Below are positions 33,309 to 52,196 of a stretch of DNA of 64,000 bases, in pieces; the stretch's first letter is position 1; every line of letters begins with the position of its first letter. This DNA is from Kofleriaceae bacterium (GTDB lineage Bacteria > Myxococcota_A > Polyangia > Haliangiales > Haliangiaceae). The stretch is from NCBI GenBank assembly GCA_965215005.1, contig CBDCCZ010000006.1:64001-128000 (forward strand), read 5' to 3'. The translations under genes were made by a program, and so were the position numbers. A model generated the notes under the pieces. That model searched no databases and had not been told where the DNA came from. It worked only from the letters and a program-made list of their open reading frames with translations.

Positions 33309-33978
33309 GCGAGCCCTCCGCGGTGCTTGCGGTGGTGAGCGCGCCGCGCGTCGACCCCGGCCCCGACTCCTCGAGAAGCTCGAGAAACTCGTCGGTGAGC
33401 ATCTTGAGCTCGAGCGCAATACGCGCGAGCCGCTGATTGAAGAAGTTGTAGATGATCACCGCCTCCACGGCGACGAAGATACCCGCCGCCGTCGCCCATA
33501 GCGCCTCCGAGATACCTGGAGCAACGACCTCGAGACCGCCGCCGCCAACCTCGGCGATGTCTGCGAAGGCGAACATGATGCCGATGACGGTGCCGAAGAG
33601 GCCGACGAACGGCGCCGTGGCACCGATGGTGCCTAGGATCCAGAGCCGCTTCTTGAGATCCGCGGCAACCCGCACCCGCTCGCGATGCACCGCGCTGCCA
33701 AGCTTCTCCGGCTTGGTGCGCCCCAGCCGCTCATAGCCAACCAAAAACACGTCGGCGAGCGGCGATGCTGAGCGCTCACACGCCGAACGCCCCTCGTCGA
33801 GCGCGCCTCGGGTGAGACAACGAGTGACGGTATCGGCGAGGGCCTGCGCGCGCGCAGTGAACTTCCACTGCACGATGAGGCGCTCGAGGGCGACGGCCAC
33901 CGCCAAGACGGACATGGCCAGAATCGCCCACATGGCGAGACCGGCGCCGTTGAGGATTTCCCAGATTGTTAAGTTCAT
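33286..33978 (-). CDS. exbB: MotA/TolQ/ExbB proton channel protein
   Basis: LGTIGATAPFVGLFGTVIGIM, VAPGISEALWATAAG. Confidence 0.9.
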   Translation of the reverse strand: MNLTIWEILNGAGLAMWAILAMSVLAVAVALERLIVQWKFTARAQALADTVTRCLTRGALDEGRSACERSASPLADVFLVGYERLGRTKPEKLGSAVHRERVRVAADLKKRLWILGTIGATAPFVGLFGTVIGIMFAFADIAEVGGGGLEVVAPGISEALWATAAGIFVAVEAVIIYNFFNQRLARIALELKMLTDEFLELLEESGPGSTRGALTTASTAEGSHGDRTAA

Positions 33979-34186
33979 GGAAGGACTTCTGCAGGGGCGA
34001 GCGAAAACGTGACGCTCATTGTGGACTGAGTGGCCGCTGCGAGCCACTCGCCTGAGTTTGCATCCGCTGCTCGGAGCCTACGGTCACGTCTGCCGCGGTC
34101 CGATTGCCACATTGCCTAGGGTGAGTGTACCGCTACTGTGGGCGAGCGTTCTCCCTCTTACTGAACGATTTCATCTAGATTCCAAA

Positions 34187-34202
34187 CGGTATCGAGTTTG
34201 CT
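34187..34202 (+). promoter_or_regulatory. Sigma54 (-24/-12) promoter
   Basis: CGGTATCGAGTTTGCT: GG-N10-GC with TTGCT, 18 nt before the ATG at 34220. Confidence 0.6.
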
Positions 34203-34219
34203 AAATTCCCCGCACAACG

Positions 34220-34684
34220 ATGCGCTGTCTCATCATCGACGACGACGAATCACCGCGGCTGCTGATGGAGCGGTTGATAGAGCTGGCCGGTCACAAGGCC
34301 ACGGCGGTCGCCAGCTGCCGGGAGGCGGTGAAAGTGATGGTTCAAGATGGCTTCGACGTCGCCATCGTCGATATGGAGATGCCGGGACAAAACGGCACCG
34401 ACACCATCGACGCGCTGCGCGGTATCGATCCCCAGCTGCGGGTGCTCGTGGTGTCGGGGCATGGCGATCGGCGACACGTGATGGCGGCGCTGCAAGCAGG
34501 AGCCGACGGCTACATCCTGAAAGATGACCTCAGCGATTCGTTGGCGGCCTCGCTCATCGATGTACGCGCGGGAAACACGCCACTGAGCCCCCGCGTCGCG
34601 ACAATCATGCTCAATCAGCTGCGGCAGGCGCTCGGTTCGCACGTGGTGGCCACGCGCCCGGTGGCGCGGATCAAGCGCAACTGA
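34220..34684 (+). CDS. Response regulator (NarL-like receiver without obvious HTH)
   Basis: LIIDDD, IVDMEMP, VVSG, GADGYILK, then the LSPRVA linker but no LuxR HTH. Confidence 0.85.
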   Translation: MRCLIIDDDESPRLLMERLIELAGHKATAVASCREAVKVMVQDGFDVAIVDMEMPGQNGTDTIDALRGIDPQLRVLVVSGHGDRRHVMAALQAGADGYILKDDLSDSLAASLIDVRAGNTPLSPRVATIMLNQLRQALGSHVVATRPVARIKRN

Positions 34685-34778
34685 GCCCGAGCGCCCCGCG
34701 AAGCAGCAAAGGTCTACATGAGGCTCGCGGGGCAGCGCCGTGGGGCGCGGCTCCGCGAGCGGGGGAGATGCGGCAGGG

Positions 34779-37700
34779 CTATTTCGGCGTGGCGCTGGCG
34801 GCGCCGGCAATTACCGGCTCGGCGGAGGGCGCACGCGCCGCTGCCGGCTTGCGCTGCCAGCGGACGCCGGCGAGGGCGCGCCAGTCAGGGGTGCCGTAGC
34901 CCTCATCGGCGCCGAGGCCGCCGGCGATGAAGGCCGTCACCGAAGCGTCGATGGCGTAGCTGGCGCCGGCGAGGAGCTCGAGGTGATTGCGGTTGAACCG
35001 ACGCCACAGACGATCGGCCTCGGTGGCTCCCGCCAGGCTGGCGCTCAGCTCGATGGGCGGTCCGCCGCGGTCCTCGAAGCGGTAGCCCACGCCGAGATGC
35101 CAGAACAGCTCGTCATCGACGGTCAAGTCGATGAGCTGGCGCTGCCGACGCAGGCGGTAGCCAAGGTTGACCGCGGTGCGGACCGCGCCAAACCGGCGAC
35201 CGATGGCCAACTCCGGCGCCAGGCTGACGCCATCGCCGCGGAAGTCGCTCGCCGAGCCGAGCGGCGCGGTGACGCCGACGATGAGCGCCAGGTCGGCGCG
35301 GTGGCGCTGCTGCCGCAGGAATTGCACTTTGCTAACCAGGCGCAGATCTCCGAAGCCGCCACTCAGCTCATTCATCGGCGCGCCGGCGATGTCATCGGAG
35401 CCCTGCGATAGCACGACCGGTAGCTCGAGGCCGAGCTGCAGGCGGTCCCACAGCGCCACCGCACCGACTAAGCTGGCGGTGGTCCGCTGCCCGACCAGCG
35501 CGCCCGCGCGGACACGCTCGCCGGCGCTGCCGTCGTAAAGGACCAGTGGATCATTGGCGGTGCCGAGCCACAGACCGAGATTCCAGTGCAGATGCTCAGG
35601 AACCGCGGCCCACTCGACATCGAGCACGCCGTCCCGATCCATGGCCAGACGAAAGCGCTCCACCGAGAACGCATCGCTCTGTTGCGCCTTTGCCGGCGTG
35701 GCCAGTGCCATCACGAGCAGGGCCGCAGCGGCAATGGCCGCACTCCGCCGGCTTCTCAGGACCAGCAGCGCCAGCGCCAGCGCCACGGCCAGGCTCGAAG
35801 GCTCCGATCCGCCGGTGGAGCAACCGCCGCCGGTGACGCCGAAGCGGTCGTGGTAGCCGTCGCCGTTGGCGTCGTCGTCGCAGATGTCGCCGAGGCCATC
35901 GCCATCGAGGTCCTGCTGCGCGCCGTTGTCGGCGCTGGGGCAGTTGTCGAGCGCGTCCGGCACGCCGTCGGCATCGCTGTCCGCGGAGGACTCGTCCCCA
36001 GCATCGCAAGCGTCGCCGACTCCGTTCCGATCGCGGTCGCTCTGGTCCGGGTTGGCGACGTCGACGCAGTTGTCTACGTCATCCTCGATGCCATCGCCAT
36101 CGGCGTCTGGCGTCTCTACCGGCTCCTCGCCGTCGGGATCGCTCGGTTGATCGTCGGACGCGTCGTTGGGATCCCGCTCACCGGCGTCGACGCGGCCGTT
36201 GCGGTTGACGTCCTCGTCGCCATCGGTGACGCCGCCGCCATCGGTGTCGGCGCGGACCGCGCTGGTGGTGGTGCTCGCATGGCGATCGGACACGAAGTAG
36301 CCCGCCGCCAGATTGGTGTCAGCGCTGGGCACGGTCACGCCTCGCTCGGTGCCGTCGAACACGAGATCGTCGTCGCTGTCCGGGTCGAGCACGTTGATCG
36401 CGCCGTCGCCATCGGTGTCCTGGTTCCAGTTCGGCTCCTGGCCATCGATCACGCCGTCATCATCGCTGTCGCCATCCCGCGGGTCGGAGCCGGCGGCGAG
36501 CTCCTCGGCGTCACTGAGCCCATCGCCGTCGCTATCCTCCGGCGGCACGTCATCGTTGGGATCGTTCGGGTCGGTCTCGTGCGAGTCGACCGCGCCATCG
36601 TGGTTGGCGTCTTCGGCGCCATCGGCAACGCCGCCGCCATCGCTGTCGGCGGTGAGTGGATCGGTGGTGGACGCCGGGTCGGCATCCGCGACGAAGGTGC
36701 CTGCCAACAGGTCGGTGCCACGATCCGGCAGGGTGAGGCCGACTTCGGTGCCGTCGAACAAGCCGTCGTTGTCGCTGTCGGCATCGAGCGCGTTGCCGAG
36801 GCCATCGCCATCGCTGTCGGCGGCGGGCGCGGGCTCTTGACCGTCGATGATGCCATCGTCATCCGAGTCGCGGTCGAGTCGGTTGGTGCCGAGCTCGGCC
36901 TCGAAGGCATCGCTGGCGCCGTCGTCGTCGCTGTCGGTGTCGAGGTAGTCCGGGGTGCCGTCGCCGTCGGTATCGACTGGCGGTGTGCTGAGGTCGTCGT
37001 CGCCCGCCTCGATGCGATCGCTTATGCCATCGCCATCGGCGTCGGTGTCGAGGTAGTCGGGGATGCCGTCGCCGTCGTGGTCGCCGGTGCCCTCGTCGAG
37101 GTCGGCGATGCCGTCGCCGTCGGTATCGATGCGCCCGTCGTCAGCGGCGCGATTGGGATCGGTCTCGGCGCCGTCGACTCGGCCGTTGCGATTGGTGTCT
37201 TCGTCACCATCGGGCACGCCGCCGTTATCGCTGTCACGGTCGACCGGGCTGGTGGTGGTCGTCGGATCGCTGTCGGCGCGGAAGTTGCCAGCGCCGAGGT
37301 CGGTGCCCGGCGCCGGCGCGGTGAGGCCGAGCTCGGTGCCATCGCGCAGGCCGTCGCCGTCGGCGTCCGCGTCGAGCGCGTTGATCGCGCCGTCGCCGTC
37401 GGTGTCGTGGTTCCAGTTCGGCTCGTCGCCGTCGATGACGCCATCGTCGTCGCTATCGGCGTCGGTCGGCGAGGTGCCAAACCGGGTCTCCTCGGCGTCG
37501 GACAGGCCATCGCCATCGGTATCGACGGGCGGGGCGTCATCGGCGGCCACCGTGGGATCGGTTTCGCCGGGGTCGCGGGCGCCGTTCTTGTTGGTGTCCT
37601 CGGTGCCGTCGGCCACGCCGCCGCCATCGCTGTCGCGCAGCAGTGGGTTGGTGGTGCGACGCGGATCGGCGTCGGCGACGAACGCGCCAGCGCCGACGTC

Positions 37701-40700
37701 GGTGTCTGCGTCCGGCTCGGTGAGGCCGAGCTCGGTGCCGTCGAGCAGCCCGTCGTCGTCGGCATCCGGGTCGCGGGCGTTGATGAGGCCATCACCGTCG
37801 GTGTCGCTGCTCCAGTTGGGCTCGCGGCCGTCGAGAACACCGTCGTCGTCGCTGTCGGCATCGTGGGGATCGGTGCCGGCAGCGTGCTCTTCCGCATCCG
37901 AGAGGCCGTCGCCGTCGCTGTCGGTGGGCGTCGTGTCATCGCTTGAATTGTTCGGATCGGTGTCGCCGGCGCTGATGGCGCCGTCGTGATTGGGATCTTC
38001 GGCGCCATCGTCGACACCGCCGCCATCGCTGTCGGCGCGGGTCGGATCCGTCGTGGTCGACGGGTCGGCGTCGGCCACGAACGCGCCGACGCTGAGGTCG
38101 GTATCGGGATGCGGGCTGGTGAGGCCGACCTCGGTGCCGTCGAAGATGCCGTCGCCGTCGCTGTCGACATCGAGGGCGTTGATGAGGCCGTCGCCGTCGG
38201 TATCAGTCGTGGCGCCGGGCTCGGCACCGTCGGCGAGGCCATCGTCGTCGCTGTCGCCGTCGCGCGGATCGGTGCCGACGCGTGCCTCGTCGACATCGCT
38301 CATGCCGTCACCGTCGTCGTCTCGATCCCCGGCGTCGCATAGGCCGTCGCTGTCGAGGTCGGGTCCGTCGTTTCGCGGCTCGCTGCGACCCGAGAGGCAA
38401 TCCTCGCAGCCGTCGCGATCTGCGTCGCCGCAGACGAATCGATTGCGCGGATCGGAATCCAGGTCGTCGGCGACACCGTCGCCATCGGCGTCGACCTCGC
38501 CGGCATCGCAGATGCCATCGCCGTCGGTGTCGAGGCCATCATTGGCCGGCTGCGGGCTCCCGGTCATGGCGCAGTCGTCGCACGTGTCGGCGTCGGCGTC
38601 GCGGCAGACCAGCGGATTCGCAGGATCGCGGTCGAGAGCATCGGGGACCGTGTCGCCATCGTCGTCCGGGTCGCCGGCGTTGCACAGACCATCGAGGTCC
38701 GGGTCGTAGCCGTCGTTGTGCGGCGCGGGAGCGCCTTCGATTGCGCAGTCATCGCACAGGTCGGCGTCGCTGTCGCGGCAGCGGAGACGATCGAGCGGGT
38801 CGGAATCGAGCGCGTCGATGACGGTGTCGCCGTCGTCGTCATCATCGCCCGCATCACAGGTGCCATCGCTGTCGGTGTCGAGTCCGTCCATCGCCGGAGC
38901 GCTGGCGCCAGTGACGCTGCAATCGTCGCAGGAGTCGGCGTCGCTATCGCGGCACGCGAAGCGATTCAGCGGGTCGGAATCGCTGGCGTCGACGACATCG
39001 TCGTTGTCGTCATCGGCGTCGCCGAGGTCGCAGAGCCCGTCGCTATCGAAGTCGTCGCCATCGCTGGCCGGCGCGAAGACGCCGCCGACGGCGCAGTCGT
39101 CGCAGGTATCGCCGTCGCTGTCTCCGCAGCGCGAGGCCTGGGTGCGGTCGGTATCGACGTCGTCGGTGACGCCATCGCCGTCGGAATCGAGATCGAGGTA
39201 GTCGGGAGCGCTGTCGCTATCGGTGTCGACTTCTCCCTCGCTGCTGTCGGCGATGCCGTCGCCATCGGAGTCGACGTCGTACCAGCTGTCATCGCCATCG
39301 CCATCCGGGTCGCTGTTGCCGAGCGCCAAGCCGTCGGCGAGCTCGGTCGCGGTGTCGATGCCGTCACCATCGTCGTCCTGATCGCGCCAGTTGCCGATCA
39401 TGTCGAAGTCTGGATCGACGACACCCTCGACCTGGTCGAAGAGACCGTCATCGTCGCTGTCATCATCGAGGGCGTCGATGGTGCCGTCACCATCGGTATC
39501 GGTGCGGAAACCGCCGTCGGTCTCGACGAAATCGTCGATGCCATCGGCGTCGGTATCCGGATCGAACGGGTCGGTGCCGATGGAGCAGGACTCGTCGAAG
39601 GTCGCCAGGCCGTCGAAGTCATCGTCGACCGCCAGCGACAGGGCGTCGACCGACGCGCTGGTGCTGACCGTGGTCTTGACGGCGGCGTAGGTGTCGAGGA
39701 AGGACTCGTTGCCCTTGCCGTCGCCGTCGAAGTTGCCCCAAGCGCGGGCGTTGACGTTGGCGTCGGCCGGATCGGCCGGATTGCCGGCGCTAAGGCCATT
39801 GACGCCGGAGGCGGTGAGGCTCATCTCGCCGTTTGGCATGGGCTCGGCGTCGGCGGCGATCAAGCTGTCGTCCCAGTACATTTTCAGGCCGGTTCGCACG
39901 CCGTTGGCGGCCACCGAGAAGATGCGCATGCCCTCGAAGCTGGTCTCGATGTCGTTGCCGACGAAGTGGAACTCACCGACGTTGACGTAGACGACGCAGT
40001 CATACGACCCGTCCGGAACCGGCGCGCCGCTGTTGTCGGTACCGTTCCACGGCACCGCGTTGGCACCGGCGCTAACCGTGCCAACGATGAGCAGATCGTC
40101 CGGATCGGTGCGGTCGTAGACCGTGTCGCGATCGAGGTCGCAGACCAGGTTGTAGGTGCCGGCGACGTTGGAATCGAACTCGAACTGGCCGGTGCTCACG
40201 CCCGGCACCACGGCGTTGCAGCCGGTGGGTCCACCACGGAAGGCAAAGCCCGTTACCACCGGCGTGAGGGTGCCGTAGCGCGCGATCGCCGGCGGGTTGA
40301 GATACATCGGGTAGTACGGCGTGACCGCGTTACCGGCCACTGGGACGCTCTTGCCGGCCTGAGCGCCATCGACGCCGGTGGCGTTGCTGTTGATGGAGTA
40401 GCCATGGCCGGCCATGCCGTTTAGATCGAGCTCGACCACCGCATCGGTGGTCGGGCTGCCGCCGGGAACCAGCGCAAAGAAGCTGCCGTCGGAGGCGGCC
40501 TCGGCGCCGAAGCTGCCGGCGCTAAACTTCCAGTCGAGCGAGTAGAGGCGGCCCGGCTGAGCCGCGCCGGCGCCGGCGCAGCTCGAGCCGAGGACCGCGA
40601 TGTCCCAGCCGGTGAAGGTCTGCGTCGTGGAAAAGCGCAGCTCGTACGCGCCGGGCAGTCCGGCGGTCGGCGCGACCCGATCGCCCGAGGCAAGAGTGGC

Positions 40701-40973
40701 GATCAAGGTCCCGTCCGGAGCGGTGACCGCCATGGTGCCGGTGCCGGTCCAGGCGATGCACTCGTTGTCGGCGTCGAGGATGTCGACGTAGGCCACGGTG
40801 TTCACCTGCAGGCGCTGCCGAGCGCCCAGCTCCGCGGAGCCTTCCGCATGAGCGCTCGGTTGCCAGCTCATGACGGTGACGAGAGCCGAGGCGACGGCGG
40901 CGCTCAAGGTGCAAGTATGCAGATGCCTGCGAGGTCGATGCGGTCGCGTGGGCTTGTGCGCTGCGATGTTCAT
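34779..40973 (-). CDS. Very large surface protein: N-terminal domain, thrombospondin type-3-like Ca-binding repeats, internal MYXO-CTERM-like tag, second signal peptide, C-terminal beta-barrel
   Basis: Signal peptide ending AHA|EG; dozens of DxDxDG motifs; DNCP TSP3 units; [23 protein letters not shown]; TPAKA|QQ; barrel ending [13 protein letters not shown]. Confidence 0.85.
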
Positions 40974-41246
40974 GGGGGTCCTCGGCTCGATACCAGCTCG
41001 ATTAGCGTTTGCTCGACCAGCGCTCGTCGGCCCCGCGGTCGTCGTGCGGGGGATATAGGCACGCGTGGTCAGGGTGGGCGGATCCAACCGCCGGAATCGG
41101 CCGCAGGGGCGGCCAGCTGTACAGGCGGCCGCGCTTTTTTCATCGAGGGTGGGGAGCGTGGGGTACCGCAACCCTTGCGCTATCGCTGCGGCATTGGTTG
41201 ACTACCTGGTCCGCCTCTCTCCCACGGTTCCATGGAGGTCGCTGCG

Positions 41247-41522
41247 ATGAGTCGAATGGTTCAATGTGCAAAGCTTCAACGCGAGGCGCCCGGCCTCTCC
41301 TATCTGCCGTTCGACGATGAGCTCGGGCAGCGCATCTATGAGGAGGTTTCCGAGGAAGCCTGGCGCATGTGGCTCGAGCACTCAAAGATGATCGTCAACG
41401 AGTATCGGCTCGACCTAACCAGCGAAAAGGCCCACGAGCTGCTACGTGAGCAGTGCGAGTCGTTCTTCTTTGGTGAAGGCGCGGCGCTGCCGCCCGACTT
41501 CACCGCGCCGCCAGCAAAATGA
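41247..41522 (+). CDS. yggX: Oxidative damage protection / Fe(II) trafficking protein YggX
   Basis: MSRMVQCAKL…ELGQRIYEEVSEEAW…MIVNEYRL. Confidence 0.92.
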   Translation: MSRMVQCAKLQREAPGLSYLPFDDELGQRIYEEVSEEAWRMWLEHSKMIVNEYRLDLTSEKAHELLREQCESFFFGEGAALPPDFTAPPAK

Positions 41523-42964
41523 CGGAAGGTCTGGACACGACGGGGCCTCTAGCAGAGCCGGGCGCGATCGTGCTGGTGTCCTGCTATGAGCTCGGTCACC
41601 TGCCGCACGGCGTGGCCATGGCGGCAGGCTTTCTGCGGCGCGCAGGCTTTGCGCCGGTAACCGTCGACCTGTCCATCGAGAAGCTCGATGACGAAGCCGT
41701 TCGCGGCGCCTCGCTGGTAGCCATTTCGGTGCCCATGCACACGGCGCTGCGCCTCGCAGCGCCACTCATCGAACGCGTGCGTGCGCTCGCACCGGCGGCA
41801 GTCGTATGTTGCTACGGGGTTTACGCGCCGCTCAATGAAGCGTGGCTGCGACAGCTGGGCGTCGACTACGTCATTGGGGGAGAAGCCGAAGACGAGCTGG
41901 TCGCGCTCGCCACGGCTCTAGCCCAAGGTCGGCAGCCAACACCGCAGCTGGTCTCACTCGACAAGGTGCGATTTGCCGCGCCGCATCGCGAGCCGCCCGC
42001 ACTGCTGCAACGCCGCTTGCACAAGCACGCCCAGCTCGACCTCGGCAATGGCCAGCGGCGGCTCGTGGGCTACACCGAGACCACGCGCGGCTGCCTCGAT
42101 ACCTGCCGCCATTGCCCGATCCCGGCCGTGTATGGCGGGCGATTTTTCGCGGTTCCGCGCCAGGTGGTGTTGGCCGACATCGAGACCCAGCTCGCCGCTG
42201 GTGCCGAGCACATTACCTTTGGAGATCCAGATTTCTTGAATGGGCCCGGGCACGGGCTGGCCATCGCCGCCGAGCTTCATCGCCGCTGGCCACACGTCAC
42301 GTTCGACTTCACGGCGCAGGTGACGCACCTACTGCAGCAGCGTTCGCGGCTCCAAGAGCTGCCGGCGATGGGCTGCGCGTTCGTCGTGAGCGCGGTGGAA
42401 TCCCTAAGCGATACAGTGCTGGCTGCGCTGAAGAAGCGCCACCGTCGCGCGGCCGTCGAGGAATTGTTCGCTCTGGCTGACCAAGCGCATCTGGTGGTGC
42501 GGCCCACCTTCGTGACGTTTACGCCATGGACCAGCTTGGATGACGTGCGCGAGCTGGCTGAGTTTCTGGCTTGCTGGGGACTGGTCGATCACGTCGACCC
42601 CGTGCAGCTCTCGATTCGCTTGCTGGTGCCGCCGGGGTCGCTGCTGCTCAAAGCCGACGACACCCGCGGCGCCTTTGGGCCGCTCGACTCCGCCGCTCTC
42701 ACGCATCGATGGGTTCACGAGGATCCGCGCGTGGATGCGCTACAGCGCGCCATCGCGGCGCGGGTGGCGCTCGCTGCGCAGCGAGGCGATGACGCCCTCG
42801 ATGATAGTCACGCCGTGTTTTCCGCGATTCATGGGCTGATCTACGAGGCCCTTGGACAATCGCCACCAGAGCTGGTGATCCCGCGGCGCCGGGTGCCGCG
42901 GGTCACCGAGCCGTGGTTCTGTTGAAGCGAGCCCACCGAGAGCCAGTTCGGCTCTCTCGTTTGA
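41519..42964 (+). CDS. B12-binding-domain radical SAM protein of the CUAEP/CCAEP-tail family; predicted selenoprotein (TGA 42923-42925 = Sec)
   Basis: SCYELGH…ISVPMHTA B12-like domain; CLDTCRHC (CxxxCxxC); VTEPWFC-TGA-SEPTESQFGSLV-TGA. Confidence 0.85.
42926..42961 (+). promoter_or_regulatory. Candidate bacterial SECIS element
   Basis: Directly 3' of the in-frame TGA: upper stem GAGAGCC/GGCTCTC with loop AGTTC; possible lower stem AGCGAG/CTCGTT. Confidence 0.6.
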
Positions 42965-42965
42965 T

Positions 42966-44210
42966 CTACAAGAGTGGCGCAATGAAGAACTCGAGGGCGG
43001 CCGCGGCGCGGCGCAGCGCGTGGGTCACCGCGGCGCTGTCCGCGCCGTCGGCGAACACAAAGCCCATGTACGTGTTTCCTTCCGGCAGCGGCACGACGTG
43101 CTCCCCCAAACGCGCCGTGAGCACGACGTCGCGGATGAGCGGCATCACGGCCGCCGCGTCGATGCCGTCGATGCCGCGCAACACCCCGGCTTTCGGCACC
43201 GGCAGCATGTAAACGCCGCTGGCCCCGGAGCGCCGGCCCGCGAGAAGCTCGCCCACGTCGCGCCCAATGGCGTGGGCCAACAGGACCTCCGGCAGCGAAA
43301 CGCCCGCGAGCTCGAGAGTGCGGCCGCACAAGCCACCGATCGGCCGCGCCGCTAGCTCCAGGACCACCGGCTGCCCGCGATGCAGGCGCAGCTCGGCGTG
43401 AATGGGACCATTGACGACTCCAATGGCGCGGGCCGCCGCGGCCACCGCAGCAATGATCGCGGCTTGCTCGGGCGCGGAGCGCTGCGACGGCGTGACGTAG
43501 ATGGTTTCTGCGAACACCGGCCCCTCCAGCGGATCTGGTTTATCGAAGACGGCAATCGGCACCAGCCGCTCATGGTCTACCAGCGCCTCCACCGCGACCT
43601 CGTCGCCGTGCAAATATTCTTCGATCAAGATCAGCGCCGCGGCAGCTGGATTTTTGGCCTCGAGCTCTGGGTTTTCGAGCAGCTGACAGAGCCGCTGCAT
43701 GCGCGCCGCGAGCTCGCTGGAGTCATCAGCGCGCATCACGCCACGGCTGGCCGACAAATGCAGCGGCTTGATGACCACCGGAAAGCGCAGTGCCTCGGGC
43801 AAGCGACGGCTCTGACGCGGCACCACCGCAAACCGCGGCTGCGCGCATCCCGCTGCCGTGAGCGCCTGCCGCAGGCGCTGCTTATCGGCAGCCGCGCAGG
43901 TTGCCGCGACGGTGCCGTACCCGAGCCCCAACACCTCGGCGGCGCCAGCGGCGATGACTGCCGCATCCTCATCGAGGGCCAGAATTCCGGCCAGCGGTTT
44001 GGCGCTCGCGTGCTCGACGATCTGCTTCACGGCGCGCGTGGGATCGCGATAATCGAGCGGCCACGCGCCCTCGGGCCACAGCTCGGCCAGCTGATGACAG
44101 CGATCGGTGCCCACTGCCAATTCAATCTGCAACTGCGCCGCCGCACGTTCGAAGTCGCCAAGCGCATAGGCGCGCTTGGACGCGAGCAACAAAGCGACAG
44201 GCGCTGGCAT
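42966..44210 (-). CDS. ATP-grasp domain ligase
   Basis: DKQRLRQAL, FPVVIKPLHLSASRGV, ILIEEYLHGDEVAVE, HAELRL…VLELAARPIGG. Confidence 0.9.
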   Translation of the reverse strand: MPAPVALLLASKRAYALGDFERAAAQLQIELAVGTDRCHQLAELWPEGAWPLDYRDPTRAVKQIVEHASAKPLAGILALDEDAAVIAAGAAEVLGLGYGTVAATCAAADKQRLRQALTAAGCAQPRFAVVPRQSRRLPEALRFPVVIKPLHLSASRGVMRADDSSELAARMQRLCQLLENPELEAKNPAAAALILIEEYLHGDEVAVEALVDHERLVPIAVFDKPDPLEGPVFAETIYVTPSQRSAPEQAAIIAAVAAAARAIGVVNGPIHAELRLHRGQPVVLELAARPIGGLCGRTLELAGVSLPEVLLAHAIGRDVGELLAGRRSGASGVYMLPVPKAGVLRGIDGIDAAAVMPLIRDVVLTARLGEHVVPLPEGNTYMGFVFADGADSAAVTHALRRAAAALEFFIAPLL

Positions 44211-44236
44211 TGCCGCTGGTTTACCATCGCCGTTGC

Positions 44237-45319
44237 ATGCTGTCGCCCGGTGCCGAGTCGGTGGCGCTATTCCGGCAATTCCCAACGCTGTGCTCGCGTC
44301 TGCCGTGGGTGCATCTGGGCGCGTGGCCCACGCCGGTCGAGCCGCTGCGTCTGGCCAGCGGCTGCCAGCTGTGGGTCAAACGCGACGATGCCTGCAGCAG
44401 CCTCTACGGCGGCAACAAAGTGCGCACGCTGGAGGCAATGCTCGGCGTTGCCCGCGCATGCGGCGCGCAACGCATCTGGGCCACCGGCGCCTACGGCTCG
44501 AACCACGCGGTTGCAACCCTGGCGCACGCGCCCCGCGCCGGTCTGCAGGCCGGGGCCATCCTATTTCCGCAGCCAAGCTCGCCGCCGGCGCGTGCCAACC
44601 TCTCGGCCGCGCTCAGCCTTCGCCCTCACCTGCTCGCGCTCGCCAGCATTCTCGAGCTGCCCCTGGCCATGCATCGCGTTCGCCGAAATAGCCACGACTA
44701 CGTCATGCCTCCCGGTGGCGCCACGACCGAAGGCACCTTCGGCGCTCTCTCCGCGGCCTTCGAGCTCGCTACGCAGGTCGCCGCGCGCGAGTGCCCCCTG
44801 CCTCGTCGAGTCGTTATCGCGGTCGGCTCGACCTGCACCACGGCCGGTCTCCTTGCTGGACTTCACGCCGCTGCTCGCATGGGAGTGTGGCCGGGCGCGG
44901 TGCCCATCGTGCACAGCGTGCGGGTGACGCCGTGGCCAATCACCAGCCGCGCGCGCATCGCCTGGCTCGCGCAGCGCACGCTTCATCGACTCGAGCGGCT
45001 CGTCGGCGTCACGCTCGGTGTGAGCTACCGCGCCTTGCTGGCCAACCTCGTCGTCGATCGCCGCTTCATCGGCCGCGGCTACGGCCGTGCCACCCAAAGC
45101 GGTCGCCGCGCCCTCGCCCGGTTCGCCGACAGCGGCGCGCCCCCATTGGACTTGGTGTATTCGGCAAAATCCGCGGCCGCGCTACTCGCTTTGGCCAATC
45201 GCTCCCGCGGCCCACTCCTATATTGGGCAACCAAGTCGTCGGCCCCTCTGCCCATTGCAAGCGCCGCTGATGTCGCCGTCGCACCGGCGCGCGCCCGCCA
45301 TTGGCTCGAGCAGCCGTAG
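44237..45319 (+). CDS. PLP-dependent enzyme, D-cysteine desulfhydrase / ACC deaminase family
   Basis: PTP…LWVKRDD…YGGNKVRTLE, GSNHAVA, VGSTCTTAGL, LDLVYSAK. Confidence 0.88.
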   Translation: MLSPGAESVALFRQFPTLCSRLPWVHLGAWPTPVEPLRLASGCQLWVKRDDACSSLYGGNKVRTLEAMLGVARACGAQRIWATGAYGSNHAVATLAHAPRAGLQAGAILFPQPSSPPARANLSAALSLRPHLLALASILELPLAMHRVRRNSHDYVMPPGGATTEGTFGALSAAFELATQVAARECPLPRRVVIAVGSTCTTAGLLAGLHAAARMGVWPGAVPIVHSVRVTPWPITSRARIAWLAQRTLHRLERLVGVTLGVSYRALLANLVVDRRFIGRGYGRATQSGRRALARFADSGAPPLDLVYSAKSAAALLALANRSRGPLLYWATKSSAPLPIASAADVAVAPARARHWLEQP

Positions 45320-45431
45320 AGCGAGGGGCTGCGTGCGGCGGGCGCACTGGAGAAGCCACCGTTCGCGTCGCAGTGGAGCTCAACACCTGTCGGCTCGATC
45401 GCGCGCGCCGTCTTCGCAGGGCCTTGGCGGG

Positions 45432-45781
45432 CTCGAGCTGATCATGACGGCGCCTATGGTTGTCGCGAGCTGGATCACCCTGCAGTATTTAGGGCTCCAC
45501 CGTCGACCCCGGCATCTTCGGGTCGGGCAACAAAACCCTTCACAATGTCGTCGGAGGTAGTCTAGGTGTATCTCAACGTGATGATCGAAGCACCGGTCGA
45601 ACCCATGAGTACGATAATAGAGAAACACGATACCGTCCGACAGCTCGTCGACAATGGTTGGATTCACCTGTTCGCGATGGACGCGAACGGGCGCGTTAGC
45701 CACAAGCACGCCGGTGACTCGTCGTGGTCGGCCATCGAGCATCCCCTTCAGGAGAACCAGGCGTGCGCCCAGGTCTCGTAA
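45432..45781 (+). pseudogene. dabA: Frameshifted, internally deleted 3' remnant of DabA (DUF2309) inorganic carbon transporter subunit
   Basis: Three frames: LELIMTAPMVVASWITLQY / STVDPGIFGSGNKTLHNVVGG / LNVMIEAP…IIEKHDTVRQLVDNGWIHLF. Confidence 0.85.
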
Positions 45782-46989
45782 AGCGCCTTGGAATCTTGGG
45801 AGGCGGGCAGTTGGCGAAGATGCTCGCAGAAGCGGCGCTGCGGCAGGGAATCGCGCCAACAGTGCTCGTGAGTGAGGCCTCCGACCCCGCGGCCATCGAC
45901 GGGGCCACCCTCATCGTCGGGTCGCTGGATGCGCCTGCCGCACTGTCTGAGCTGGCAGCTAGCTCAGACGTGCTCACGCTCGAGAACGAGTTCATGGACC
46001 TAGACCAACTGGGGCGAGTCCTAGAGCAACATTCTGGGACGGTATTGCGACCGGGCGTCGAAAGCATCGCTACCGCCCAGGACAAGCTTGCGCAGCGGGG
46101 ACTGTTTCAGCGTCTGGGAATTGCGACGGCGGAGTTCGATCTCGTCCGCGCTGACTCTCTAGCGAGCGATCTCCAGCGAGTGCGAAAACGCTTTCCGAAC
46201 GGGTTCGTGCTCAAGTGGTCGCGCTTTGGCTATGACGGCCGCGGCAACCTGTTGGTTCCTTCCGGTCGAGAGGTCCCGCTGGAAGAGCTGGAAGAGTTTT
46301 GCCGCCTTGGCGAAACCCGAGGAGCCACCATCTACGCGGAGCGGATGGTGGACTTCGAGTGCGAGCTAGCCATGGTGTCGACGCGCGCGGCCGATGGCGA
46401 TCAAGTCTATTACCCTCTCGTGATCAGTCGACAAGAGCGCGGCGTGTGCAGGGAAGTCTACGGCCCCGCATCGGCCGCCGGCTACGATGAAGACCTCGAA
46501 CGAGCCGCCCGCGCGACCATTCGCTCAATCGCCACCGAGCTCGACCTCACGGGCACCTTGGCAGTGGAGTTCTTCCTAGAGCGCGATGGGCGTCTTCTGG
46601 TGAACGAAATGGCTCCACGAGTGCATAACAGCGGGCACTACACGCTCTTTGGCCAAACCCCGAGCCAGTTCGACCTCCACGTACAAGCGGTGATCGGCGC
46701 GCCGTTGTCGAGACCGGAGCTGCGCGGCCTCGGCGTCATGCGAAACCTCTTGGGCCCGTGGACAACACCACAGAACGTTACTTGCACCGCCCCCGCCGAG
46801 GCGCCACCCGAAGGCACCACGTTGACGTGGTACGGCAAGCAGCAGGTGTCGCCCGGTCGTAAGATGGGTCATCTGAGCGGACGAGCTACCTCACTTCAAG
46901 CCGCAATGGACTTGCTGGAGGCCATGGCGAGCTATGAAGCGCGATTTTGGAGCACCGTGAGCAGCTCCAACGAGGAGACCTCGCCATGA
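45763..46989 (+). CDS. purK: N5-carboxyaminoimidazole ribonucleotide synthase
   Basis: [61 protein letters not shown] before GTG 45763. Confidence 0.93.
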
Positions 46990-47516
46990 CCATTGAGCCA
47001 CCCCGCGTAGCCATCATCATGGGCTCCGACTCCGACTGGCCAGTGATGAGAGCCGCCGCCGAAGCGCTGCGTGAGCTTGACGTGAGCTATGAGACAGCAG
47101 TGATCTCGGCTCACCGCATGCCGCAAGAGATGGCCGAGTTTGCCTCCAACGCAGCGGCCCGGGGCATCGCGGTGATCATCGCGGGTGCTGGCGGCGCGGC
47201 TCACCTGCCGGGAATGGTCGCGGCACACACCGAGCTGCCGGTGGTCGGAGTGCCCGTGCCGATTGGCCATCTACAGGGCATGGATGCGCTGCTATCTATC
47301 GTTCAGATGCCCAAAGGAGTTCCCGTTGCGAGCGTCGCCATCGGCGCGGCGTTTAACGCCGGTATATTGGCCGCGCAGATGCTTGCCTCTGGCGGCGTCG
47401 AGCCCGATCGGGCGCTATCGGAGCGGGTGCTAGCCTATAAGGCAAGACTGCGACAGGCCGCGGCCGCAAAGACGCTTCCGCCGATCTCGAGTGTCGAGGA
47501 GGACGCAACAGGATGA
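46986..47516 (+). CDS. purE: N5-CAIR mutase
   Basis: [40 protein letters not shown]. Confidence 0.96.
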
Positions 47517-48412
47517 GACTGAGTCATCTGCGCGCACTCGAGGCCGAAGCCGTTCGCATCTTGCGTGAAGTGGCTGCCGAGTGCGAGCGTCCCGTGTTGC
47601 TCTTCAGCGGCGGGAAAGACTCGATTGCCCTCTTGCGCCTCGCAGTCAAAGCGTTTCGGCCAGCGCGGCTGCCCTTTCCGATCTTGCACGTCGACACAGG
47701 GCACAACTTCCCCGAGATCATCGAATTTCGTGACCGCCTGGTGGAAGCTCTGGGGGAAACGCTCATCGTCGCGAAGGTGCAAGATCGGATCGACCAAGGC
47801 TTACTGACCGATGAGACCGGCCCCGGAGCGAGTCGCAATCGACTCCAGATACCCGTGCTTCTCGAGGCGATCGCTACTCATCGGTTCGATGCTGCCATCG
47901 GCGGCGCTCGACGAGATGAGGAGAAAGCGAGGGCAAAGGAGCGGGTTTTTAGCCACCGGGATCGACATGGCCAGTGGGATCCTAAAAATCAACGCCCGGA
48001 GCTTTGGTCGCTCTACCACGGCAAACTTCGCCGAGGCGAGCACTTACGAGTCTTTCCGCTGAGCAACTGGACCGAGCTCGATGTCTGGGAATACATCGCC
48101 GCGGAAGAGATCGAAGTTCCCGAGTTGTATACCGCAAGAATCCGAACCGTGTTCGAACGAAGCGGTCTTCTCTACTGTCCTGCGCCGTTCGTCCACCGAC
48201 TGCCATCAGAGACTCTATTTGAGACAAAGGCTCGGTTTCGCACTGTTGGAGACATGACTTGCACCTGCGCAGTTCGGTCCCACGCCGAGACACTCGAGGA
48301 GATCATCGCCGAAGTGCGGTCCAGCCGGATCACCGAACGCGGCGCCACTCGTGCCGATGACCGTATGAGTGATGCAGCAATGGAAGACCGCAAGCGCGAG
48401 GGCTACTTCTAA
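47513..48412 (+). CDS. cysD: Sulfate adenylyltransferase subunit 2
   Basis: [51 protein letters not shown]. Confidence 0.96.
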
Positions 48413-48419
48413 ATCCGCC

Positions 48420-50474
48420 ATGACCACTTCTCCGCTAGACCCGAGCACTCAAGCTCCTGCGAGCCTGCCCGATCAGCTGCGGCTCGTCACCGCGGGAAGC
48501 GTGGACGATGGCAAATCCACGTTGATCGGTCGCCTGCTCTTCGACAGCAAGGCGATCTTCGACGATCAGTGGGAACAAGTTCGGGAGGTGAGCGCGCGCC
48601 GCGGAGACGAGCGCGTCGACCTGGCCCTCGTGACAGATGGTCTCCGCGCTGAGCGCGAGCAGGGCATCACCATCGACGTCGCGTATCGATACTTCTCGAC
48701 CTCCAAGCGCAAGTTCATCATCGCAGATGCGCCGGGGCACGTTCAGTACACGCGAAACATGGTCACCGGCGCGAGCACTGCCGATTTAGCGATCGTGATC
48801 ATTGACGCGCGCAACGGGTTCGTCGAACAGAGCAAGCGCCACATGTTCTTGGCGAGCTTGCTCGGAGTTCCCCATCTCGTAATTGCCGTAAACAAGATGG
48901 ATCTCGTCGGCTACTCGGAAGCTGTTTTCGAAAGGATCAAGCTAGACGTATCCTCATGGTCGGCAAAGCTCGAAGTGCGCGACCTCACGTTCATCCCGAT
49001 TAGCGCGGTAGTGGGCGACAACGTCATCGAGCGGAGCGCGAACATGCCCTGGTACGGTGGGAGTAATCTGCTGCACCACCTCGAGACCGTTCACATCGCG
49101 TCCGACCACAATCTGATCGATCTCCGATTTCCTGTGCAGTGGGTAATTCGCCCCCAGTCAGACGCCTACCGAGACTATCGCGGTTACGCCGGCGTAGTGG
49201 CTAGCGGCGTCATGCGACCGGGCGATGAAGTTGTCATCCTGCCAAGAGGAACCACCACCCGCATCACGCGAGTGGAAACATTCGATGGACCACTCGCCGA
49301 GGCATTTCCTCCAATGGCCGTCACGGTGCACTTGAAGGATGCAGTAGACGTGTCCCGCGGAGACATGCTGTGCAGACCGCAAAATCTACCGCATATTGGA
49401 ATGCGACTCGATGCCATGGTGGCTTGGATGAGCCGTAACCCTCTCTCTATTGGGAAAAGTTATGCCCTGAAGCAGGGCACCAGATGGACGAAGGCCACCG
49501 TATCGAGCATTCAGTACGAGCTCAACGTCAACACGCTGCATCGCGAAAGTGCGCAAACGCTGGCGCTCAATGGTATTGGTCGCGTTCAGCTGCAAGCCAC
49601 AGCACCCATTCCCTATGACGCCTACACGCGCAATCGCACGACGGGATCATTTATTCTGGTGGACGAGGCCTCCGGCGAAACTGTCGGCGCTGGAATGCTC
49701 CTTCAGCCACACACCGAAGAAGTCTTGGCGTTACCGGCTAGCGCGGAAACCGACAGGAGCGCAGGGGACGGTCGCCCTGGACTCTTCGTCACGGGTACTG
49801 ACACCGGAGTCGGAAAGACTGTGGTGAGTTGCGCTCTCGTCACAGCGCTCCGCAAGCAACAAGTTCGTGCCGTCGGCATGAAGCCCATCGCTTCCGGATG
49901 CGAAGCGACCCCCGAAGGACTGCGAAACGACGACGCAAGACTACTGCAGGCTGCCAGTGGAGTTAACGACTATGACCTCGTCAACCCCATTGCGTTCTTG
50001 CCGCCAATCGCGCCGCACATCGCGGCGGAACAAGTTGGGCAATCGATCTCGCTGGCCGCAATCGAGGTTGCCTTCCAGCGCCTCGCCGAGGATGCCGAAT
50101 TCATCGTCGTGGAGGGCGCAGGAGGCTACCGCGTGCCGCTTGCGACCGGCGGGCCGACCATCGCCGAGATTCCCAAGCGCTTGGGCCTCGGGGTGCTACT
50201 CGTCGTGGGCATCCGTGTTGGCTGTCTGAGCCACGCGATCTTGACCGCAGAGGCCATTCGCGCAGATGGATTAGAGCTCGTGGGATGGGTGGCGAACTGC
50301 CCAGACTCAACCGTTCTCGAAATAGACCGGCAAATCGCCACGCTCGCGGCCCACCTGGCCGCTCCGCTGCTGGGCGTCATCCCTTCACTAAAGCTCCGCG
50401 ACGAGAGAGACGCAAGCGTGGCGCATTCGTATCTGCACCTGCAACCGCTACTGTCGCGCCTAAAGGCGAAGTAA
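48420..50474 (+). CDS. cysN-bioD: Fusion of sulfate adenylyltransferase GTPase subunit CysN and dethiobiotin synthetase BioD
   Basis: GSVDDGKSTLIGRL, EREQGITIDVAYRYF, NKMD, ETVGAGM; then FVTGTDTGVGKT, KPIASG, APHIAA, VVEGAGG, GCLSHAILT, GWVAN in one uninterrupted frame. Confidence 0.92.
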   Translation: MTTSPLDPSTQAPASLPDQLRLVTAGSVDDGKSTLIGRLLFDSKAIFDDQWEQVREVSARRGDERVDLALVTDGLRAEREQGITIDVAYRYFSTSKRKFIIADAPGHVQYTRNMVTGASTADLAIVIIDARNGFVEQSKRHMFLASLLGVPHLVIAVNKMDLVGYSEAVFERIKLDVSSWSAKLEVRDLTFIPISAVVGDNVIERSANMPWYGGSNLLHHLETVHIASDHNLIDLRFPVQWVIRPQSDAYRDYRGYAGVVASGVMRPGDEVVILPRGTTTRITRVETFDGPLAEAFPPMAVTVHLKDAVDVSRGDMLCRPQNLPHIGMRLDAMVAWMSRNPLSIGKSYALKQGTRWTKATVSSIQYELNVNTLHRESAQTLALNGIGRVQLQATAPIPYDAYTRNRTTGSFILVDEASGETVGAGMLLQPHTEEVLALPASAETDRSAGDGRPGLFVTGTDTGVGKTVVSCALVTALRKQQVRAVGMKPIASGCEATPEGLRNDDARLLQAASGVNDYDLVNPIAFLPPIAPHIAAEQVGQSISLAAIEVAFQRLAEDAEFIVVEGAGGYRVPLATGGPTIAEIPKRLGLGVLLVVGIRVGCLSHAILTAEAIRADGLELVGWVANCPDSTVLEIDRQIATLAAHLAAPLLGVIPSLKLRDERDASVAHSYLHLQPLLSRLKAK

Positions 50475-50750
50475 GCCGCCTCGGAGGCTCCGTCCACCCT
50501 CCCCGCGAGTGGTGCACGAACCACGTTCTTCCGCGGCGTGAGAAGCGCTGGCACTCTGTGCGGGTGGATGAGCAGATGCTAACGAGCGCGAGAGGTTGGC
50601 TATTGCGGCGCCGGAGAGATCATCGACTAACGCGGCCGCTCGGCAGCGGCCTCGGTCGGCGCATCACGGGGTCGGCGAATCTTTGTAGTTGCGCGGCCGC
50701 CCAGAGGCGCTCGAGGAGGGCGCCGTCGAGGCGGCGCCACACCGCACTAC

Positions 50751-52196
50751 TTAGTTACAAATGCCTTCTGCAGAGTCGAAGCAGGCGCGCCCGCCTTGAT
50801 AGCAAACACAGGTGAATGCGCGATCGATGTTGCAGGTCTTCCTGAACGATGGGTAGTTGCCGCAAAGGGGCTCGCCATAGCGTTGCGTATCGGTGAGGCA
50901 GGTCTTGCCGCCGCCGCTACGAATGCAGGCTGCGATGGCTCGATAGTTATTCTTAAGGCCTGCCACGTTGCACTTGGTCGAGCCAAGCTTTGGCCCTTCG
51001 ACGGCGTGACGCTCGCAGCTACTACTCGTGACCTTCTGATAGATGGTCCAGACGTCTTTGCTAAAGAGCTCAAGGAGCTGATAGCGAATCGGGATCTGCC
51101 GTCCGAACAGCTTGAAGAAGTTCACGGCCGCGCCCACCGTTGCGTTGATGTTCACGCCCAGCTTGATGCCCACTTCCTGATTGGCTTGATGACGTCGCAA
51201 GAACAGGTTGGGGCCCGCATCTATATATAATCCGGCAACGCGAAACGGCGCGACGGTGACGCGGGGCTTGACGAATATCTTGCCCTCGAGCTGGAAATCA
51301 CTATCGGCAGTTATGCGTGGCGAGCCGCCGCGGCTTCGCGGCAGGTGCGCTCCGAGACGGGCCTGCCAGCCGCCGCCGCGGGTGTGGCTCGCCGAGCCTT
51401 CGATCCGCTCGCTGATCGTGACCGGCAGCGTCACCGCGATGTCGCCATCGTAGGTGGCCTGCACGCCAGCGATGAGCTCAACGGTGATGACCACGGGCAC
51501 CCATCCCGCAGAGACGACGAATTCACGCTTCATTCCCGGAATAGGTGTCTCGAAGCGCGAACTGGCTTTGCCGTGGGCTTCGAATACCAAGTCGAAGCGG
51601 GCGGCGATATCGATTGCATAGTCGGCGTGAAAATATTCATTCACCAGGTTCATCGACACCGCGATATCGGGTGTCACCGTGAGCTCGGCGTTGGCGACCG
51701 CAGCGCTTAGCGGTCCAACTTTGAGCAATGAGCGATCACCGAGGGGAAAGCGGATTCGCGGCCCGGCCCGCAGGTTGTTCAATGCAGGAGCGAAGCGCAC
51801 CGAGAAATCGAGCTCGGCGAACGCATCTTCCAGCGCAGCGGGCTCGGTTTTCACGATGATTGCATCATCATCCATAGGATCGATCGCAAGCACCCGACGG
51901 ATGCCGTCATCGGCGATCAAGATGGAGCCCAGCTGAATCGGCGACTCAGCTCCGTCATAGAGCAGCGTCATCGACTGGTCGGCAGCATCAAGTACTTCGA
52001 ATTCAGTCCCCGGTCCGACTCGCACTGCCTCCGGCTTGAGCTCTACCGAGCGCAGCTCCGAATCGACTGCCGTCGCGTCGAGCTCGCCCTCTGCGGGCGC
52101 TGTCGTGCATCCCGTGCCACCGACCAACATCGAGATCGCACCTAGAACCAAGGCTCTCCCAACACCAATGCCCCCGAGCTGCGCAGTTTCTGTCAT
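50751..52196 (-). CDS. Hypothetical lipoprotein, beta-rich body with 10-Cys C-terminal domain
   Basis: Hydrophobic leader ending GGTGC; C-terminal ~90 aa hold 10 Cys; start set at ATG 52196 from promoter position. Confidence 0.75.
   Translation of the reverse strand: MTETAQLGGIGVGRALVLGAISMLVGGTGCTTAPAEGELDATAVDSELRSVELKPEAVRVGPGTEFEVLDAADQSMTLLYDGAESPIQLGSILIADDGIRRVLAIDPMDDDAIIVKTEPAALEDAFAELDFSVRFAPALNNLRAGPRIRFPLGDRSLLKVGPLSAAVANAELTVTPDIAVSMNLVNEYFHADYAIDIAARFDLVFEAHGKASSRFETPIPGMKREFVVSAGWVPVVITVELIAGVQATYDGDIAVTLPVTISERIEGSASHTRGGGWQARLGAHLPRSRGGSPRITADSDFQLEGKIFVKPRVTVAPFRVAGLYIDAGPNLFLRRHQANQEVGIKLGVNINATVGAAVNFFKLFGRQIPIRYQLLELFSKDVWTIYQKVTSSSCERHAVEGPKLGSTKCNVAGLKNNYRAIAACIRSGGGKTCLTDTQRYGEPLCGNYPSFRKTCNIDRAFTCVCYQGGRACFDSAEGICN

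Follow-up and report, generated by a model that had tools for sequence, protein, structure and literature searches.

Comparative evidence that the annotated stop of a radical SAM gene from a Kofleriaceae bacterium is a selenocysteine codon

The DNA analysed here, a 64,000-nucleotide (nt) stretch of a Kofleriaceae assembly (GCA_965215005.1, contig CBDCCZ010000006.1, forward-strand positions 64,001 to 128,000; hereafter the window, with coordinates counted from its first letter), carries a gene for a radical S-adenosylmethionine (SAM) enzyme whose gene call on record ends at the TGA 42923-25. Our analysis indicates, with a probability of roughly 93%, that this TGA is a selenocysteine (Sec) codon and that positions 41519-42964 encode a 481-residue member of the NCBIfam family NF040546, the 'CUAEP/CCAEP-tail radical SAM (seleno)protein'. 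On computational grounds, namely comparative sequence analysis, covariation and the Sec machinery of the genome, we show SelB-dependent recoding of the UGA via an in-frame hairpin, which gives a protein with a vicinal Cys468-Sec469 pair. Taken together, the comparative evidence and the machinery leave very little room for a true stop codon, a terminator hairpin or a pseudogene.

The reading frame continues across the annotated stop

The open reading frame (ORF) 41519..42925 (+) comprises 468 amino acids (aa) and ends with VTEPWFC, the last Cys codon being TGT 42920-22, directly followed by TGA 42923-25. In the existing annotation, the gene ends at 42925, and its product (P0002, 468 aa) is cut at this TGA. 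Behind it, 12 further codons are open (S-E-P-T-E-S-Q-F-G-S-L-V) before the frame closes at TGA 42962-64; translated with TGA=U, the in-frame continuation after EPWFC-TGA and up to this second TGA reads SEPTESQFGSLV. A first-pass annotation, made from the letters of the window, had proposed this arrangement, and sequence and translation bear it out, as they do its remark that the radical SAM gene ends 1 nt from the stop of a convergent gene: base 42965 is the only one between the end of the frame and the convergent stop codon at 42966-68. The full radical SAM selenoprotein gene would hence occupy 41519..42964 (+), with 481 residues, Sec at position 469 and TGA 42962-64 as its real stop.

The codons for Cys468 (TGT) and Sec469 (TGA), at 42920..42925 (+), lie within an invariant tail motif, P-R-x-x-E-x-W-F-C-U-x-E-P. 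The recorded gene call lacks 13 residues and with them the most conserved motif of the enzyme, which is probably catalytic. Most homologues in public metagenome data are likewise cut short, and many of them are named only 'radical SAM superfamily enzyme YgiQ'. That a gene call stops at TGA 42923-25 is a point in favour of a genuine stop, with the protein ending at Cys468 and the hairpin behind it being a terminator or a chance structure; in the light of the comparisons below we consider this very improbable.

At its N-terminus, the protein carries a B12-binding-like (Rossmann) domain (residues 18-130; 41570..41908, +; Pfam PF02310, 36.8 bits against a cut-off of 32.1), in agreement with an AlphaFold model and with Foldseek matches to AprD4, TsrM, MgmA and OxsB. 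A Radical_SAM domain (PF04055) was found at residues 187-350 with 40.5 bits, over the gathering score. Its CX3CX2C motif for the [4Fe-4S] cluster (C-L-D-T-C-R-H-C) is encoded at 42092..42115 (+), and the three ligands C192, C196 and C199 are invariant in 19/19 aligned proteins (alignment A2).

For the family searches, the read-through protein with C written for U (P0001) served as query. It matches NF040546 with 593.2 bits (E 3.2e-178) at an equivalog cut-off of 500, which supports its earlier placement in a CUAEP/CCAEP-tail family with Sec or Cys at this site and without established function. The alignment pairs residues 17-478 with profile positions 1-467 of 468 and so extends over the TGA, and a family model spanning this codon speaks against a genuine stop. 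A six-frame search of the genome with the same profile scores the gene at 586.8 bits. Two other families of radical SAM selenoproteins, TIGR04167 and TrsS (NF045646), were absent from the 15 NCBIfam families matching P0001 at E <= 0.01.

The NCBI name of NF040546 is already in use for public homologues, among them proteins from Haliangium, Kofleriaceae and Methylomirabilota. A passage in the Haft 2022 preprint lists the family as an uncharacterised CU-motif selenoprotein whose structure and function are not well known, and describes CU motifs as rare and tied to heavy-metal handling, e.g., in HgcA, MerT and the SAO system (10.1101/2022.07.06.499078). Within the literature searched, this was the one relevant paper to name the family. 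Since family, Sec and CU motif are present in NCBIfam and in this preprint, the novelty is low: the gene is an ordinary, mis-truncated member of a catalogued family, and the finding itself would not surprise a selenoprotein specialist. What is gained is a corrected annotation, a clean comparative demonstration of the Sec insertion sequence (SECIS) and leads from the genomic context to the function of a large family without known function, which occurs in many phyla of soils and sediments and has retained a rare vicinal pair of Cys and Sec.

TGA and cysteine codons alternate at one conserved position

The NF040546 profile was searched in the source genome and 60 relatives (61 genomes). It scored above the cut-off in 20 genomes, and two more contained partial genes at contig ends. 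Among these 22 matches, 19 have exactly one in-frame TGA and three have none; the TGA falls on a single alignment column, where the three exceptions (L027, L030, L031) have TGC. In a wider scan, restricted to one genome per species, 557 relatives were found, of which the best 80 loci were analysed. Judged by their record titles, these 80 stem from Myxococcota, Nitrospirota, Acidobacteriota, Planctomycetota, Methylomirabilota/Rokubacteria, Chloroflexota, Gemmatimonadota and Dormibacterota, and their tail column holds TGA in 62 and Cys in 15 cases, while three are cut by a contig end. As one of the two patterns used in this multi-phylum scan encoded Cys-Cys, the ratio of Sec to Cys forms is not unbiased, and the two sets overlap in some genomes and are not independent. 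The alternation of TGA and Cys codons in homologous C-termini, proposed as a check in the first-pass annotation, is nevertheless apparent in both, and Cys in place of TGA at 15/80 and 3/22 loci is at odds with a genuine stop.

Conservation also extends past the TGA. The sequence [A/S]-E-P follows U or C in the tails of all 22 relatives, and in alignment A2 the residues P460, R461, E464, W466, F467, C468, U469, E471 and P472 are invariant in 19/19 proteins, E471 and P472 being encoded behind the TGA. Apart from the three cluster ligands and the tail pair, in which U469 is counted, these 19 proteins share no invariant cysteine. Such protein-level conservation after the TGA, maintained across phyla, further contradicts the reading as a stop.

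The same data bear on the idea of a decaying copy, in which a Cys codon mutated to TGA and left a pseudogene or truncated allele. A single-base change would suffice for this (TGT or TGC to TGA). However, the TGA is kept in 19/22 relatives and at 62/80 loci of the multi-phylum set, always with a matching hairpin, and apart from the TGA the gene is intact and retains every invariant residue, which makes decay extremely improbable. Both the genuine stop and the decaying copy are already contradicted by the comparative data.

In the gene described here, the tail reads W-F-C-U-S-E-P, with Ser where the family name has Ala. This CUSEP variant with its vicinal Cys-Sec pair had been singled out as a feature of the present copy. 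The variant as such is real, but it is not distinctive, as 11 of the 19 Sec-form relatives (own gene included) read CUSEP, against eight reading CUAEP. In the multi-phylum set, CUSEP occurs in 7/62 Sec forms, all of them from records labelled delta proteobacterium, Myxococcales or Kofleriaceae. Within this Myxococcota lineage, CUSEP is the prevailing form.

Some further observations concern the labels of the multi-phylum loci. All seven loci labelled Nitrospirota are Cys forms. Tail and neighbours of L070, titled Nitrosotalea sp., resemble those of the Methylomirabilota loci, and L099, titled uncultured Clostridia, has a tail and neighbours like those of Blastocatellia loci; in both cases, the label or the binning of the contig may be wrong.

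A covarying hairpin behind the TGA

The predicted bacterial SECIS hairpin is located at 42938..42956 (+), starting 12 nt after the TGA and within the coding tail (codons E-S-Q-F-G-S-L). Its 7-bp stem is formed by GAGAGCC (42938-44) and GGCUCUC (42950-56), which enclose the loop AGUUC (42945-49). This hairpin with a G in its loop had been part of the initial description, and sequence and fold agree with it. Taken alone, the structure is only suggestive. Perfect 7-bp hairpins with loops of 3-8 nt start at 73 of the 64000 positions of the window (65% G+C), and the chance that one starts within 13 nt behind a given stop is about 1.5%. Such hairpins are thus not rare at this base composition, and the location between convergent genes would suit a terminator. 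The fold of the surrounding 71-nt region is moreover unexceptional (z = -1.2 against shuffled sequences), which weighs against recoding and in favour of a genuine stop; this value stems from a single sequence and was not used as evidence.

Decisive is the comparison of homologues. A stem of differing sequence is present at the same place in 19/19 Sec-form relatives. In an ungapped 45-nt alignment of these (A1), 85% of the cells of the 7-bp helix are paired, and most of the unpaired ones belong to sequences with a loop shortened by one base. When the 3' arm is displaced by 1-3 columns as a control, the pairing decreases to 33-59%. Compensatory double changes were found in 6/7 pairs, and the observed covariation was reached by 0/500 column shuffles. 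Furthermore, the G in the hairpin loop (column 24 of A1) is invariant in 19/19 sequences.

Sec and Cys forms also differ in the stability of this region. Over the multi-phylum loci, with one Sec locus left out as too short, the 33 nt at +10 to +42 have a median minimum free energy (MFE) of -13.6 kcal/mol in Sec forms (n=61, range -19.8 to -8.0), compared to -6.2 kcal/mol in Cys forms (n=15, range -10.7 to 0). The corresponding Mann-Whitney p value of 1.5e-8 is overstated, as the relatives are not independent, and this must be held against the strength of the contrast.

Because the hairpin covaries, is present in Sec forms and is missing from Cys forms, we interpret it, on the strength of these alignments, as a SECIS and not as a terminator. 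The opposite case, a mere terminator between convergent genes, had been named in the first-pass annotation as the outcome that would speak against Sec; it is contradicted by the covariation and by the contrast between Sec and Cys forms, while the SECIS-like character that had been claimed there gains support from the compensated pairs and the invariant loop G. There is also no T run behind the stem 42938-56. A scan of positions 42700-43200 with Rfam at E <= 10 gave four matches at chance level and none to a SECIS family; Rfam is not expected to contain a general model of bacterial SECIS elements.

The selenocysteine machinery is complete

The genome assembly (6.2 Mb in 62 contigs, 92.8% complete) contains all four genes for Sec synthesis and insertion that the first-pass annotation had advised to look for, each above its curated cut-off. 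selA was found with 541.5, selB with 313.1 and selD with 299.6 bits, and selC with 75.1 bits to the tRNA-Sec model (cut-off 47); ARAGORN likewise calls a tRNA-SeC with the anticodon tca. A complete machinery is a further argument against a genuine stop. In the proposed course of translation, SelB together with Sec-tRNA(Sec) would recognise the hairpin inside the coding sequence downstream of the UGA, Sec would be inserted beside Cys468, and translation would end 12 codons on at TGA 42962-64.

The genomes carrying Cys forms give mixed support with respect to selA. It was not found in G016, which is 99% complete, whereas G038 and G041, i.e., two of the three Cys-form genomes, do have it. The latter two count against a simple coupling, and the Cys form is not simply due to a loss of the machinery. 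As an observation in its own right, the selD match G000:C11:57587-58495 (L018) lies within a stop-to-stop frame of 774 codons, compared to 311 positions of the model, and could represent a fusion protein.

Genomic context

Directly upstream, at 41232..41522 (+), lies a 96-aa gene of the yggX type, encoding an Fe(2+)-trafficking / oxidative damage protection protein (PF04362, 117.8 bits; NF003817, 118.1 bits at a cut-off of 74). The stop codon of this gene (TGA) and the start codon of the radical SAM gene (ATG) overlap in the sequence ATGA, and both genes are probably co-transcribed. YggX is directly upstream in 19 of the 22 loci of the relatives, and two of the three misses are cut on that side. 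As a specific partner it was rejected: the gene is single-copy in 47/61 genomes, including many without the radical SAM gene, and the adjacency, which as such remains, may be partly synteny for the same reason.

On the other side, a convergent gene at 42966..44285 (-) encodes a 439-aa ATP-grasp enzyme of the L-amino-acid-ligase type (Pfam ATP-grasp_4, 98.6 bits; LAL_C2, 54.1 bits) with weak NCBIfam similarity to BacD and DdaF. An ATP-grasp gene is found within the 1.5-kb flank in 12/22 loci of the relatives. At the level of genomes, an ortholog (E <= 1e-30) is present in 21/22 genomes with the radical SAM gene and in 0/39 without it, the single carrier lacking it being G047, which is 83% complete. 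The two genes can be unlinked: in G028 they are separated by about 600 kb, and in G012, G024, G041 and G058 they lie on different contigs. In this lineage, the ATP-grasp enzyme is a likely pathway partner. As a universal partner it was rejected: in a planctomycete sample of G063 and 40 relatives (41 genomes), the radical SAM gene occurs in four genomes, each time with one TGA, and only one of these four carriers has a strong ATP-grasp ortholog (G103, adjacent). A weak ATP-grasp match was seen in one genome of this sample without the radical SAM gene.

For 77 multi-phylum loci, neighbours were assigned by ORF clustering and Pfam. The most frequent one is an ATP-grasp ligase (37/77 loci), which is found in varied arrangements in Myxococcota, Methylomirabilota, Acidobacteriota and some Planctomycetota. 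An Nfu/NifU-like Fe-S carrier follows with 26/77 loci, mostly immediately downstream; YggX with 19/77, upstream, in Myxococcota and Chloroflexota; and a DUF169 protein with 15/77, mostly downstream, in Planctomycetota. Taken by strand and position, 46/77 loci have an adjacent Nfu, YggX or DUF169 gene on the same strand. The adjacency of such Fe or Fe-S helpers and the co-occurring ATP-grasp amino-acid ligase offer handles for a first biochemical test.

Several other genes in the vicinity deserve mention. Divergent from the ATP-grasp gene, positions 44210-45319 (+) encode a pyridoxal phosphate (PLP) enzyme of the D-cysteine desulfhydrase / 1-aminocyclopropane-1-carboxylate deaminase / CuyA / XcbE group, with 125.4 bits at best and below all cut-offs. 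It could be a third pathway gene, and it also adjoins the ATP-grasp gene in L024 and L026, the two closest relatives with long enough flanks. Also beyond the ATP-grasp gene lie a PurK-like gene just under the curated cut-offs, CysD, and a CysN above the cut-off of the CysN subfamily. This CysN (48369-50474, +) matches TIGR02034 with 569.5 bits over residues 37-444, and its C-terminal domain matches the dethiobiotin synthase BioD (TIGR00347, 155.1 bits, cut-off 83.3, residues 473-643; Pfam AAA_26). The domain usually fused to CysN is the adenosine 5'-phosphosulfate kinase CysC. On the far side of yggX, the 2130-codon ORF 34779-41171 (-), whose end lies just upstream of that gene, carries bacterial thrombospondin type 3 repeats and a FlgD Ig-like domain and probably encodes a giant secreted or surface protein.

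In other phyla, the surroundings take different forms. An unannotated ORF family of about 136 aa lies upstream of the radical SAM gene in 6/7 Nitrospirota loci, in the position that YggX has in other phyla (L055, L057, L059 and L110, about 1.4-1.8 kb upstream of the Cys codon; near in L072 and L105), and this family has no Pfam or NCBIfam match. Seven planctomycete loci (L061, L075, L077, L084, L089, L107, L109) share a conserved same-strand block at +0.1 to +4.9 kb, which consists of DUF169, a family of about 160 aa without match, a LysA-like PLP decarboxylase (TIGR03099, 246.6 bits, below the cut-off) and a protein with a formylglycine-generating enzyme (FGE)-sulfatase domain; near the radical SAM gene, none of the seven has an ATP-grasp gene. 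NCBIfam was also used to name the other neighbours, namely the CuyA-type PLP enzyme, the LysA-like decarboxylase, the FGE-sulfatase, an ABC ATPase, DUF169 and the two unmatched ORF families, and among these no curated cut-off was reached that would name the pathway.

A possible role of the Cys-Sec tail

Apart from NF040546 itself, the best NCBIfam match of the protein is NF040542 (263.9 bits, E 2.9e-78, residues 18-412), the RCCLKC-tail family of ArsL, a radical SAM enzyme of arsinothricin biosynthesis, and the third family reaches 65 bits. By this measure, NF040546 is a sister of ArsL, which is its nearest characterised family in sequence. According to parts of a preprint on ArsL, this enzyme splits SAM into methylthioadenosine and a 3-amino-3-carboxypropyl group and joins the latter to As(III); its C-terminal Cys motif binds arsenite and not a second cluster, and removal of the tail leaves SAM cleavage intact while product formation is lost (10.1101/2024.02.01.577332). 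Sections of a further preprint describe arsenic bound by all three tail cysteines and an Fe-C bond that links the cluster to the gamma carbon of the 3-amino-3-carboxypropyl group and that nucleophilic arsenic is proposed to attack (10.64898/2026.04.29.721666).

By analogy, we tentatively suggest an ArsL-like enzyme as the preferred, though uncertain, reading, in which the Cys-Sec arm carries a soft substrate atom or is itself the nucleophile toward the cluster-bound SAM fragment. The tail E-x-W-F-C-U-x-E-P, which belongs to a C-terminal extension beyond the ArsL-like core, would form a mobile arm as in ArsL; the Cys-Sec pair would hold a metalloid or chalcogen, or attack directly. The neighbouring helper for Fe or Fe-S, which is YggX in this gene pair and Nfu or DUF169 elsewhere, could keep the cluster supplied, and such genes would fit a cluster that is stressed or consumed, while the ATP-grasp amino-acid ligase might process the product in this lineage. 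An auxiliary cluster appears unlikely, as the invariant cysteines are limited to the three cluster ligands and the tail pair. Also counted in favour of the proposal are the CU motifs in metal-handling proteins such as HgcA and MerT, the same-strand helper genes at 46/77 loci and the ATP-grasp profile of the 61 genomes. In the AlphaFold model (mean predicted local distance difference test score, pLDDT, 86.6; predicted template modelling score 0.88), the tail reaches a pLDDT of about 71 and falls below 50 (disordered) after residue 472.

Several points weigh against this proposal. The match to ArsL stays below the family cut-off of 450. No arsenic genes (arsM, arsQ) were found among the 13 ORFs scanned at 33286-52202, and no ars genes among the annotated neighbour clusters of the 77 multi-phylum loci. 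The wide distribution of YggX and the single strong ATP-grasp ortholog among the planctomycete carriers have to be counted on the same side.

The main competing explanation for the mechanism, which we regard as somewhat doubtful, retains the selenoprotein and assigns the Cys-Sec pair a role as redox centre. A selenenylsulfide would donate a hydrogen atom or electrons and thereby quench or reduce a radical from ordinary 5'-deoxyadenosyl chemistry, comparable to the C-terminus of thioredoxin reductase (GCUG). The interchange of Sec and Cys at one site is typical of redox-active residues, the tail is flanked by the invariant aromatic and acidic or other residues E464, W466, F467, E471 and P472 and not by a thiol cluster, and the best structural match is AprD4, an ordinary 5'-deoxyadenosyl radical dehydratase (Foldseek E 2.4e-17, template modelling (TM) score 0.63). 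However, the nearest characterised family by sequence is ArsL and not AprD4 (263.9 compared to 23.2 bits), the tail of ArsL is its substrate-binding site, and the annotated conserved neighbours include no thioredoxin or reductase partner.

A more far-reaching version of the ArsL-like proposal is speculative and, in our view, unlikely. Here, the CU-tail enzymes of the Myxococcota, Acidobacteriota, Planctomycetota, Methylomirabilota, Chloroflexota, Nitrospirota and Gemmatimonadota would represent a widespread second branch of ArsL-type chemistry, forming an unusual carbon-heteroatom bond in a non-proteinogenic amino acid on the way to a peptide antimetabolite. Either a soft atom would be bound by the Cys-Sec arm, or the arm would react directly with the 3-amino-3-carboxypropyl group of SAM at the cluster, and in many lineages the ATP-grasp enzyme of the L-amino-acid-ligase type would join the product into a small peptide. 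This could be an arsinothricin- or phosphinothricin-like antimetabolite from uncultured soil bacteria.

Comparison with known systems

Within NF040546, the protein shares the B12-binding-like domain, the CX3CX2C core, the C-terminal C-[U/C]-x-E-P tail and Sec at the same column, and it differs from the family name by the Ser after Sec. Two selenoproteome reviews, neither of which was among the papers naming NF040546, list TIGR04167 rSAM_SeCys and TrsS (NF045646) as other radical SAM selenoproteins (PMC9312934, PMC13188914). They have in common with the present enzyme that they are radical SAM enzymes bearing Sec, but they belong to other families with other motifs, e.g., GxxU for TIGR04167.

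On the structural level, Foldseek relates the AlphaFold model to AprD4 (6fd2), TsrM (6wte), MgmA (9ccb) and OxsB (5ul3), with E values of 2.4e-17 to 7e-14 and TM scores of 0.55-0.69. The modelled two-domain fold appears to be the same, whereas the identity is only 12-19% and none of the four has a Cys-Sec tail. A sequence-profile search of the PDB gave nothing better than E 2e-8. No ArsL structure turned up in the PDB profile and Foldseek searches, the latter indicating the general fold of B12-domain radical SAM enzymes only.

For the arm itself, thioredoxin reductase (GCUG) and MerA, in which an adjacent Cys-Sec or Cys-Cys pair on a C-terminal arm shuttles electrons or Hg(II), may serve as a working analogy. 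Their folds are unrelated, both being flavoprotein disulfide reductases, and there is no sequence relationship.

The closest comparison is that with ArsL, the nearest characterised family. The tails of the two are not homologous, WFCU[A/S]EP here compared to RCCLKC in ArsL; the RCCLKC motif was not found in the tail PRVTEPWFCUSEP, which has no CCxxC. The present enzyme offers two soft ligands, one of them Se, where ArsL has three Cys, and about 55 extra residues separate the shared core from the tail. On the other hand, nearly the whole ArsL profile is matched, both enzymes have the canonical CX3CX2C motif, and both carry a short soft-ligand motif at the extreme C-terminus. ArsL is the one radical SAM enzyme with the canonical motif that is known to make a carbon-arsenic bond, and the CUAEP/CCAEP-tail proteins are its sister family.

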